Assembly: GCA_038887295.1 (NCBI GenBank)
Contig: JAWAKW010000001.1
Coordinates: forward strand, 173,668 to 237,667
Length of the DNA: 64,000 nt
From: Candidatus Anstonellaceae archaeon
GTDB taxonomy: Archaea; Micrarchaeota; Micrarchaeia; Anstonellales; Anstonellaceae
Reading direction: 5' to 3'
Below the pieces are notes generated by a model. The model was not told the origin of the DNA. It was given only the letters and a program-made list of their open reading frames with translations, and searched no databases. Positions 26,965 to 28,577 of this stretch are shown here, in pieces. Position 1 is the first letter of the stretch; each line of letters opens with the position of its first letter. The position numbers and the translations under genes were made by a program.

Positions 26965-28577
26965 GGAGGTGATCTATCCGCAGGTTCCCCTACGGATACC
27001 TTGTTACGACTTAGCCCCCCTCACCTATCTTTGGTTCGACAGCGCCAAGAAGCGCCGCCTCACCAAAAACAAGCTTGGGTGACTTGACGGGCGGTGTGTG
27101 CAAGGAGCGGGGACGTATTCACCGCTCGATGATGACAAGCGATTACTAGGGATTCCAGCTTCATGAGGGCGGGTTTCAGCCCTCAATCCGAACTTAGACC
27201 AAGTTTGTGGGATTAGCTTCCCCTTTCGGGGTCGCAGCCCATTGTCTTGGCCATTGTATGCCACGTGTAGCCCGTGAGATTCAGGCCATACTGACCTACC
27301 GTCGCCCCCTCCTTCCTCCCACTTAACGCGGGCAGTCTGAACAGGGTGCATCTCCCCCGGAGGGGAAATTAGCAACTGTTCACGAGGGTCTCGCTCGTTA
27401 CTCGACTTAACGAGACAGTTCGCACCACGAGCTGACGATGGCCATGCAGCACCTCTCGGCTCGTCTAGCAAGATCTTTAGTCTGGCCTTCATCCTACCGT
27501 CGCTCACGGTAATATTCCTGGCGTTGTATCCAATTGAACCGCAGCATCCACCCCTTGTGGTGCTCCCCCGCCAATTCCTTTAAGTTTCAACCTTGCGGCC
27601 GTACTCCCCAGGTGGCAGACTTAACACCTACGCTACAGCACTACAGTGGCCCGAAGCCACTGTAACACCACAGTCTGCATGATTTACTGCTAGGGCTACT
27701 CGGGTATCTAATCCGATTCGTTCTCCTAGCCTTCGACCCTCACTGTCAGACGCGTTTTGGTCAGGCGCCTTGGAGGTTTGCCAACCATCTGCTAAAAGTT
27801 GGTTGTCAAACTTTCGCCACTGGTGGTCCTTACAGGATCAACTGATTTTACCCATACCCCGTAAGTACCCCTGACCTCCCCCGCTCTCAAGCCCACCAGT
27901 ATCCACTGCGCGCCTTGAGGTTGAGCCACAAGATTTCACAGTGGACTTAGAGGGCCAGCTACGGTCTCTTTAGACCCAATATTCGTGGACACCACTCGTT
28001 CTGCCAGTATTACCGCGTACCGTGCGCCGATGCGAAGAGCGCATGGCGGCTGGCACTGGTCTTACCCAGAACTTATTCTGCGAACTTTTTAGGTTAGCCA
28101 AAAGACAGTCGACATAAGCCGGCTGCCACTCAGAGTCCCCCTATCACGCTTTTGCACCATGCAAAGCGGGATGCAAATTGCAAAGCCTGCTTTGCATGTT
28201 CGCGCATTGTAGAGGTTTCGCGCCTGCTGCATCCCGTAGGACTAGGGCCCTTGTCTCAGTGCCCTTCTCGGGGCTCCAACTCCCATTGCCCCTACTGATT
28301 ATCGGCTTGGTGAGCCGTTACCTCACCAACTACCTAATCAGAAGCAGTCTCATCCTTCGGCGGACGCGCTCCATTTCGCGCGCCTTTTGACCTATCAAGC
28401 ATTCCAGCATAGATAGGCTATCTGGAATTAGCCTCAGTTTCCCGAGGGTGTTCCAGTCCGAAGGGCAGATTGACTACTCGTTACTGAGCCGTACACCGTC
28501 CGGCGAAGTCGCCGGGCAGATTTGCATGGCTTAGTCGTACTCTGATAGCAGTGTCCTCCAGCAGGATCAACTGGAGT
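26965..28577 (-). rRNA. 16S rRNA (about 1.61 kb) with three internal insertions
   Basis: The reverse complement contains universal blocks: 5' TCCAGTTGATCCTGCTGGAG, GTGCCAGCCGCC...GCGGTAATAC, AAACTTAAAGGAATTGGCGGGGGAGCAC, GTACACACCGCCCGTCA via cggtgtgtgcaaggagc, and 3' AAGTCGTAACAAGGTATCCGTAGGGGAACCTGCGGATAGATCACCTCC. Confidence 0.9.

Follow-up and report, generated by a model that had tools for sequence, protein, structure and literature searches.

Three candidate bulge-helix-bulge micro-introns interrupt a 16S rRNA gene of a Micrarchaeota-like archaeon, one of them within the 530 loop

The window analysed here, a stretch of 64,000 nucleotides (64 kb) on contig JAWAKW010000001.1 of a Candidatus Anstonellaceae archaeon, contains a 16S rRNA gene that is interrupted by three extra segments, one of which splits the universally conserved 530 loop. 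A first-pass annotation of the sequence had left two explanations side by side, spliced micro-introns or expansion segments, and the locus raises the question whether these segments are removed from the RNA or stay in the ribosome. Our analysis supports the intron option and disfavours the expansion-segment option: with a probability of roughly 0.85, the three segments are micro-introns with a relaxed bulge-helix-bulge (BHB) motif in the 16S rRNA of a Micrarchaeota-like DPANN archaeon, which would be cut out of the precursor and the exons religated. We refer to them as introns a, b and c.

The insertions lie in conserved loops of the 16S rRNA gene

The gene is located on the minus strand at 26964..28577 and was identified with Infernal as a match to the archaeal small subunit (SSU) model of Rfam (SSU_rRNA_archaea, RF01959; 1404.6 bits, model positions 1-1478). 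Its length of 1614 nt agrees with the earlier estimate of about 1.61 kb and decreases to 1495 nt when the three introns are removed computationally. The Infernal alignment is collinear with RF01959 apart from three large unaligned blocks: one of 49 nt within CAAUGCGCGAA..GCGUGA, which is the tetraloop of helix 15 (h15), one of 29 nt separating GUGCCAGCCGC from GCGGUAAUAC, which is the 530 loop of helix 18 (h18), and one of 44 nt following UGGCGAA, which is the tetraloop of helix 23a (h23a). Across the remainder of the gene, posterior probabilities are high and the universal sites are intact. That the gene carries three insertions, as first proposed, is thus borne out by the covariance-model alignment. 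Since each of them occupies a conserved loop, they are not misaligned variable regions, and they recur in other genomes (see below). A smaller departure from the Rfam consensus, about 16 extra nt (GCGCGCGAAAUGGAGCGCGU) that lengthen a variable-region hairpin at 28362..28382 (minus strand), looks like ordinary variable-region length variation, and no BHB motif was found at this hairpin extension.

Numbered against E. coli rrsH, the junctions fall at 381/382 (intron b), 526/527 (intron a) and 729/730 (intron c), and the spliced 16S sequence aligns with that of E. coli without a gap at each of these positions. The predicted ligated junctions correspond to consensus 16S sequence, namely GUGCCAGCCGCC|GCGGUAAUAC for a, GCGCGA|AAGCGUG for b and GGCGAA|GGCGCC for c. 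The limits first given for segment a, 28017..28044, are exact, and its deletion yields GUGCCAGCCGCCGCGGUAAUAC precisely. For segment b the proposed length of 48 nt stands, and its limits shift within an ambiguous run of A residues from 28151..28198 to 28152..28199, the register of the BHB motif. Segment c is likewise a genuine insertion; its size and limits had to be revised from 42 nt at 27769..27810 to 43 nt at 27770..27812.

A BHB motif is found at the boundaries of all three insertions

A BHB motif consists of a 4-bp helix between two 3-nt bulges on opposite strands (PMC5829648). We scored a staggered geometry composed of an outer helix, a 4-nt exon strand (h), a first bulge (b1 b2|b3), an inner stem, a 4-nt intron strand (h'), a second bulge (b1' b2'|b3') and the returning strand of the outer helix. 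Cleavage, marked by the bar, was assumed between the second and the third bulge nucleotide, a rule that was calibrated on the 37/38 intron of a tRNA-Gln gene in the same window. Candidates were called strict if all four pairs of the central helix formed and the inner stem comprised at least 5 bp; a looser scan gave 540 matches and was too permissive.

The search for BHB motifs at the boundaries, proposed together with the initial observation, was positive at all three sites, in the register that regenerates the consensus 16S sequence. Each insertion fits the staggered geometry in exactly one register, and in each case the inner stem begins directly after the 5' bulge. Intron b (28152..28199, 48 nt, minus strand) interrupts the GAAA tetraloop of h15 at E. 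coli 381/382 and is a strict candidate that coincides with the insertion seen by Infernal: the exon strand GCGC with the bulge GA|A faces the intron strand GUGC with the bulge AA|A, all four central pairs are formed, and the inner stem CAUGCAAAGC/GCUUUGCAUG has 10 bp. Intron a (28017..28044, 28 nt, minus strand), at E. coli 526/527 in the 530 loop of h18, is likewise a strict candidate with four of four central pairs, built from exon strand GCCG, bulge CC|A, inner stem UGCGCU/GGCGCA, intron strand CGGU and bulge AC|G; its outer helix UGCC/GGUA follows beyond an A.C mismatch. Intron c (27770..27812, 43 nt, minus strand) lies at E. coli 729/730 in the GAAG tetraloop of h23a and forms three of the four central pairs, with exon strand GGCG, bulge AA|A, inner stem GUUUG/CAAAC, intron strand CUCC and bulge AA|G.

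Among about 1.1e5 combinations of start and length in the 16S gene, 19 are strict candidates (about 1.7e-4 per combination), and introns a and b coincide exactly with two of them, with c qualifying at three of four central pairs. A further BHB-like match at 28210..28143 was rejected because it would remove the native h15 hairpin; it represents the native internal loop of h15.

The anatomy of the segments also bears on the idea that they splice themselves, as group I or group II introns or as another ribozyme-type element. In its favour, group I introns are known from rRNA genes of Micrarchaeota, SSU/1498 being one of the sites (Nawrocki et al., PMC6125680). With 28-48 nt, however, the segments are far smaller than any catalytic core, which takes at least about 200 nt. 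In addition, no group I or group II intron family of Rfam matches anywhere in the 64-kb window, and nothing about the junctions is left unexplained by the BHB motif. We therefore consider that ribozyme-type elements have practically no chance of being the correct explanation.

The 526/527 intron is conserved in register across 45 DPANN species

To follow intron a beyond this genome, one genome per species from 185,579 species was scanned with the pattern GTGCCAGCMGCC-N{14,44}-GCGGTAATAC. Of 52 matches, 45 lie in rRNA and belong to DPANN archaea throughout. The other seven are bacterial and were rejected, as they show neither rRNA (Rfam) nor a BHB motif and about four chance matches are expected from the information content of the pattern. 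The 45 carriers comprise 30 genomes of Micrarchaeota/Micrarchaeia/Anstonellaceae, six Aenigmatarchaeota, one member each of Nanoarchaeota and Woesearchaeota and seven genomes without a phylum label, a count that covers the carriers of the site-a insertion. The carriers include LFW-35, the type metagenome-assembled genome (MAG) of 'Ca. Anstonella stagnisolia' (L027 in our set).

The length of the intron varies between 26 and 43 nt, and its register is kept in 45 of 45 species: the exon strand GCCG is followed by the bulge CC|A, a variable inner stem, the intron strand CGGU (CGGC once) and the bulge A[ACU]|G. We aligned the 40 distinct sequences to examine the inner stem. In this alignment, 94.4% of the cells are paired, compared to 22-42% when the partner strand is slid, and compensatory double changes are present in all five inner-stem pairs; none of 500 shuffles reached the observed values. 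The ends of the intron are near-invariant (A...CGGUA[AC]), and the first pairs of the stem are largely kept, U-A in 37 and G-C in 30 of the 40 sequences.

Sites b and c and the mosaic distribution among relatives

Covariation of exon and intron strand is seen between three lineages at site b, the pairs reading GCGC/GUGC in the window and in the independent MAG L005, GCAC/GUGU in L008 and GCUC/GAGC in L026, and all three lineages keep the bulges GA|A and AA|A. The comparison at site c draws on a single metagenome scan and on L035. It yielded five introns of unrelated sequence, 42-50 nt in length, at the same junction. Their intron strands read CGUU (L035), CGCU (L053-55), UGCU (L056), AGCU (L057) and CUCC (window), and each variant pairs with at least three of the four positions of the exon strand GGCG.

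The best GTDB relatives of the spliced 16S sequence are Micrarchaeota MAGs with about 90% identity, which carry intron a and lack b and c. L005 possesses all three introns with the same sizes as in the window, and L053-55 contain intron c together with an intact 530 loop, that is, without intron a. This mosaic of presence and absence among relatives points to introns rather than to expansion segments fixed in a clade.

If the segments were lineage-specific expansion segments, they would be kept in the mature 16S rRNA as extra hairpins emanating from h15, h18 and h23a. The rRNAs of DPANN archaea and of the Candidate Phyla Radiation (CPR) are indeed known as unusual, and segments b and c are placed at the tips of hairpin loops, where a helix can be extended, and fold as stable stem-loops. 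Segment a, in contrast, adjoins the pseudoknot strand 524-526, at a distance of 4 nt from the decoding-site nucleotide G530 (PMC9014874). Moreover, an expansion segment has no reason to show complementarity to the exon in a fixed register or 3-nt bulges, yet both are kept at site a in 45 of 45 species; independent introns at sites b and c also keep the exon complementarity, and the same motif marks the true tRNA introns of this window (see below). Expansion segments would finally be expected in variable surface helices and fixed within a clade, whereas segment a sits in the universal 530 loop and a, b and c are all mosaic, even among relatives of 90% identity. Minimum free energy folds of the local contexts gave mixed structures that favour neither introns nor expansion segments. 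Taken together, we assign only a very small likelihood to expansion segments.

The same comparisons speak to the option that the insertions stem from faulty assembly, from a chimera or from an rRNA pseudogene in decay, in which case the functional 16S gene would be located elsewhere. In its favour, exact look-up of two proteins of the window retrieved no record for AspRS and, for deoxyhypusine synthase, a single 1.5-kb Logan contig of SRR27730019. Against it, the gene apart from the insertions aligns to RF01959 at 1404.6 bits with high posterior probabilities, and its universal sites and its processing stem (12 bp plus a BHB motif, see below) are intact. Furthermore, the same three insertions with the same sizes are present in the independent MAG L005, and intron a is found in 45 species from many studies. 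Hence, we regard such an origin as highly improbable.

The introns described here are not the only insertions in this group of genes. Further mini-insertions in the same BHB register are present in relatives at E. coli positions ~722, ~793, ~1080, ~1363 and ~1498, and the 16S genes of Micrarchaeota MAGs (L024, L031, L003, L029 and others) contain up to about eight insertions each. Relatives also hold 16S insertions of 600-820 nt, six of which were tested; four code for LAGLIDADG homing endonucleases. The open reading frames (ORFs) of the other two, at spliced positions 1163 and 1329, combine a helix-turn-helix (HTH) domain with a putative D...E.K-like motif, which may point to a PD-(D/E)XK nuclease. 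The short hairpin introns of this group fit the known picture in which such elements coexist with, or derive from, mobile introns, and we infer that the micro-introns are remnants of mobile introns that once carried homing endonucleases. In L016, L017 and L030, insertions of 34-110 nt in BHB register lie at or beside SSU/1498 (spliced position ~1453, E. coli ~1498), the group I intron site mentioned above, and BHB and group I elements may share or compete for it.

Two tRNA genes and the 16S processing stem also carry BHB motifs

Apart from the 16S introns, the window contains BHB motifs in two tRNA genes. The tRNA-Gln(CUG) gene at 54565..54650 (minus strand, Rfam) harbors the canonical 13-nt intron at 37/38 (54600..54612) that was used for calibration. 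Its outer helix H1 is the anticodon stem, its central helix is CUCU/GGAG, and its bulges are GG|U and AG|A. ARAGORN recognizes the spliced sequence as tRNA-Gln(ctg) and calls the unspliced gene 'tRNA-???' with a 4-base anticodon (ctgg). The tRNA-Val(UAC) gene at 58816..58910 (plus strand, Rfam tRNA match) carries a 22-nt BHB intron at a non-canonical position in the D-loop (58831..58852). The motif reads GUCG AA|U AGCC..GGCU CGAC AA|U and has no outer helix. The Rfam match of this gene accordingly includes a 27-nt unaligned block in the D-loop, and ARAGORN misses the unspliced gene and calls tRNA-Val(tac) once it is spliced. The D-loop intron and the 16S introns share the same architecture.

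A third location is the stem predicted to form around the pre-16S rRNA. The joined flanks of the gene fold at -79.7 kcal/mol into a processing stem with an outer helix of 12 bp. Its 5' strand (28612..28645, minus strand) consists of H1 GCACGCUUCAGG, h GAAC and the bulge AA|A (predicted cut 28628/28627), followed by CG.AACAGAGACAA. Its 3' strand (26891..26924, minus strand) reads UUGUCUCUGUUGCG, h' GUUU, the bulge UC|G (predicted cut 26904/26903) and H1' CCUGAAGCGUGC. The strict BHB scan returned nothing for this stem because an A.G mismatch breaks the inner helix, and the motif was then placed by hand and verified. Cleavage at both predicted sites would release a pre-16S intermediate of 1724 nt, which is probably circular.

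Since BHB motifs are present in two tRNA genes as well as in the 16S processing stem, the organism relies on BHB processing, and it must process relaxed motifs at non-canonical positions. The two intron-bearing tRNA genes further imply that a splicing machinery exists in this organism.

Proposed splicing of the three introns

Based on these motifs, the following course of events can be proposed. In the pre-rRNA, the exon nucleotides 3-6 upstream of each 5' junction would pair with the intron nucleotides 3-6 upstream of the 3' junction. The resulting 4-bp helix would have a 3-nt bulge beside it on either strand, with the stem inside the intron closing the motif. The tRNA-splicing endonuclease EndA would cut each bulge between nucleotides 2 and 3, after which the exons would be sealed by a ligase of the RtcB type, which would probably also close the intron into a circle. 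The expected product is a 16S rRNA of 1495 nt with a normal h15 GAAA loop, a normal 530 loop and a normal h23a GAAG loop. Both the cleavage and the ligation of the three introns are predictions drawn from the gene sequence.

C526, the last nucleotide of the 524-526 pseudoknot strand, immediately precedes intron a, and G530 is 4 nt away. This strand of the h18 pseudoknot and G530 belong to the decoding centre (PMC9014874). Because the insertion adjoins the pseudoknot strand so close to G530, the removal of intron a looks obligatory. One could go further and regard the 526/527 intron not just as a selfish remnant but as an ancient, vertically inherited element of Micrarchaeota, Aenigmatarchaeota and some Nanoarchaeota and Woesearchaeota, whose obligatory removal by EndA and RtcB would act as a late checkpoint of 30S assembly, given that the 530 pseudoknot of the decoding site could not form before intron a is spliced. 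The near-invariant ends and the conserved first stem pairs of the intron are compatible with such a checkpoint and are equally explained by the constraints of the splice motif alone. We consider this reading as a whole an unlikely proposition.

Whether the exons are rejoined after cleavage is the point at which another explanation enters. The segments could be intervening sequences that are excised, by cuts in the BHB motif or by some other RNase, without religation, leaving a fragmented 16S rRNA held together by base pairing, as with bacterial intervening sequences. Cleavage at the BHB motifs is predicted either way, DNA cannot show ligation, and segments b and c replace hairpin tips, the usual place of bacterial intervening sequences. 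In archaeal rRNA and tRNA introns, on the other hand, BHB cleavage is normally coupled to ligation, and a break at 526/527 would sever the 530 loop itself. The two tRNA introns of the window need religation to give working tRNAs, and a ligase must therefore be present. Substrates of EndA have been described in the maturation of both rRNA and tRNA (PMC7714728). On balance, excision without religation appears very unlikely to us, and we return to splicing with religation as the preferred interpretation.

Several observations nevertheless weigh against spliced BHB introns. Strict BHB motifs are not enriched in the gene as a whole, as the 19 candidates compare with 13.9 +/- 4.6 in shuffled sequences. 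The frequency of the motif alone is thus no evidence, and the case for introns is made by the coincidence of the motif with the insertion boundaries together with the comparative data. The comparative support is thinner for b (three lineages) and c (five lineages) than for a. In this genome, the central helix of intron c holds a C.U mismatch. Neither EndA nor RtcB was found by Pfam among the 40 largest ORFs of the 64-kb window. Finally, outer pairing between the exons is weak throughout, amounting to 4 bp beyond the A.C mismatch for intron a and to 1 and 2 bp for b and c, respectively. The motifs therefore fit the relaxed (HBh'-like) class, which needs an endonuclease of broad specificity, better than the canonical hBHBh' form, and native rRNA helices further out may substitute for the weak outer helix. 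From the weakness of these helices we infer that the enzyme is a broad-specificity form such as the epsilon2 EndA of Micrarchaeum.

Genomic surroundings and other features of the window

The 16S gene stands alone: Rfam detected neither a 23S nor a 5S rRNA in the 64-kb window, and the rRNA genes are therefore unlinked. On its two sides lie genes for a cation-efflux transporter, at 25983..26894, and for a histidine kinase, at 29068..30258. Further away, three consecutive large ORFs of 1433, 856 and 759 aa on the plus strand (4122..13384) have no Pfam match at E<=0.001; their products may be giant or surface proteins particular to this lineage. A class III (archaeal type IV pilin-like) signal peptide opens each of two paralogous ORFs, of about 246 aa apiece, that follow one another in tandem at 47696..49216 (minus strand); the corresponding matches are weak and, with 22.8 and 23.0 bits, fall just short of the cutoff of 23.7.

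Implications for detection and for archaeal rRNA introns

The observation that the 515F primer site is interrupted was correct, as 12 nt of the site lie 5' and 7 nt lie 3' of intron a when read from the sequence. The same 12 + 7 nt split affects primers and probes that span E. coli 515-533 (515F, 519F/R, 530F etc.), and an insertion of at least 26 nt divides the primer site in at least 45 DPANN species. Amplicon surveys of the V4 region should consequently under-detect the DPANN lineages that bear this intron. In genome data, the affected genes will come out of automated 16S calling and alignment as over-long or 'chimeric'.

If spliced as predicted, these elements would show that protein-spliced 16S micro-introns are not confined to hyperthermophilic archaea of the TACK group and are abundant in DPANN archaea. 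The DPANN set of sites is partly different, comprising 381, 526, 729, 793, ~1080, ~1363 and ~1498, and occurs alongside introns bearing LAGLIDADG genes. Intron a would be a clear case of a gene intron that is tolerated at a loop of the decoding centre, and the whole set provides natural relaxed-BHB substrates with which the specificity of DPANN splicing endonucleases can be probed. The known mechanism is unchanged by our findings; its range is extended.

Comparison with known systems

A literature search retrieved no description of a BHB intron at 526/527 in the 530 loop or of the sites 381 and 729, with partial coverage of subscription journals, and the word 'intron' is absent from the Micrarchaeota/Anstonellales genomics papers that were checked. 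The positions 526/527, 381 and 729 thus apparently are unreported as intron sites.

The closest counterparts are hairpin BHB introns of less than 50 nt that Jay & Inskeep 2015 (PMC4496867) described from 16S genes of Thermoproteales, Desulfurococcales and Aigarchaeota, for which 13 loci have been published (374, 548, 722, 781, 803, 901, 908, 919, 978, 1093, 1205, 1213 and 1391; PMC4496867). The sites 381, 526 and 729 are absent from these 13 loci; some of the DPANN loci have the nearby 722 site in addition, which shows that both data sets are numbered alike. Like the Thermoproteales-type introns, those of the window are short, ORF-less and hairpin-forming, interrupt conserved 16S regions, possess a BHB core, split 'universal' primer sites and coexist within their lineage with long introns encoding LAGLIDADG proteins. 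In contrast to them, the host belongs to DPANN rather than TACK, the positions are others, the outer helix is weak and the motif relaxed, and the 526/527 intron is kept in 45 species of several DPANN phyla.

Within the same phylum, ARMAN/Micrarchaeum is known for non-canonical tRNA introns and for a three-unit epsilon2 splicing endonuclease of broad specificity (PMC5829648). The relaxed BHB motifs and the non-canonical positions agree with this system, which the D-loop intron of tRNA-Val in our window resembles directly. The difference is that the host RNA of the introns described here is 16S rRNA, whereas the Micrarchaeum substrates are tRNAs.

Interrupted 16S genes have also been reported from Micrarchaeota before. 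ARMAN-2 and Mia14 contain introns in their 16S genes (PMC5498576), ARM-1 has a 522-bp ORF-containing 16S insertion at 1093 whose splicing is uncertain (PMC8784108), and group I introns co-occur with BHB introns in DPANN rRNA genes (PMC6125680). The insertions of ARMAN-2, Mia14 and ARM-1 share with ours the interrupted 16S gene and the phylum. They measure about 500 bp, contain an ORF for a hypothetical protein and are located at E. coli 1093, whereas the introns of the window have 28-48 nt, lack an ORF and are located at 381, 526 and 729. None of these cultivated genomes was among the matches to the 526/527 pattern in the scan of 185,579 species.

Insertion sequences are likewise present in the rRNA genes of CPR/Patescibacteria (PMC11270868). 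There as here, conserved rRNA sites of ultrasmall lineages with reduced genomes are interrupted and detection by amplicons is hampered. The CPR insertions differ in being bacterial, mostly hundreds of nt long, often of the group I/homing-endonuclease kind and not substrates of BHB/EndA processing.

The SSU rRNA of eukaryotes, finally, can contain group I introns in the region of the 530 loop, for example at S516. As proposed for intron a, these are tolerated in the decoding-site loop of the gene because they are removed from the RNA. The S516 introns are self-splicing, span several hundred nt and interrupt position 516, whereas the intron described here has 28 nt, lies at 526/527 and would be spliced by proteins.

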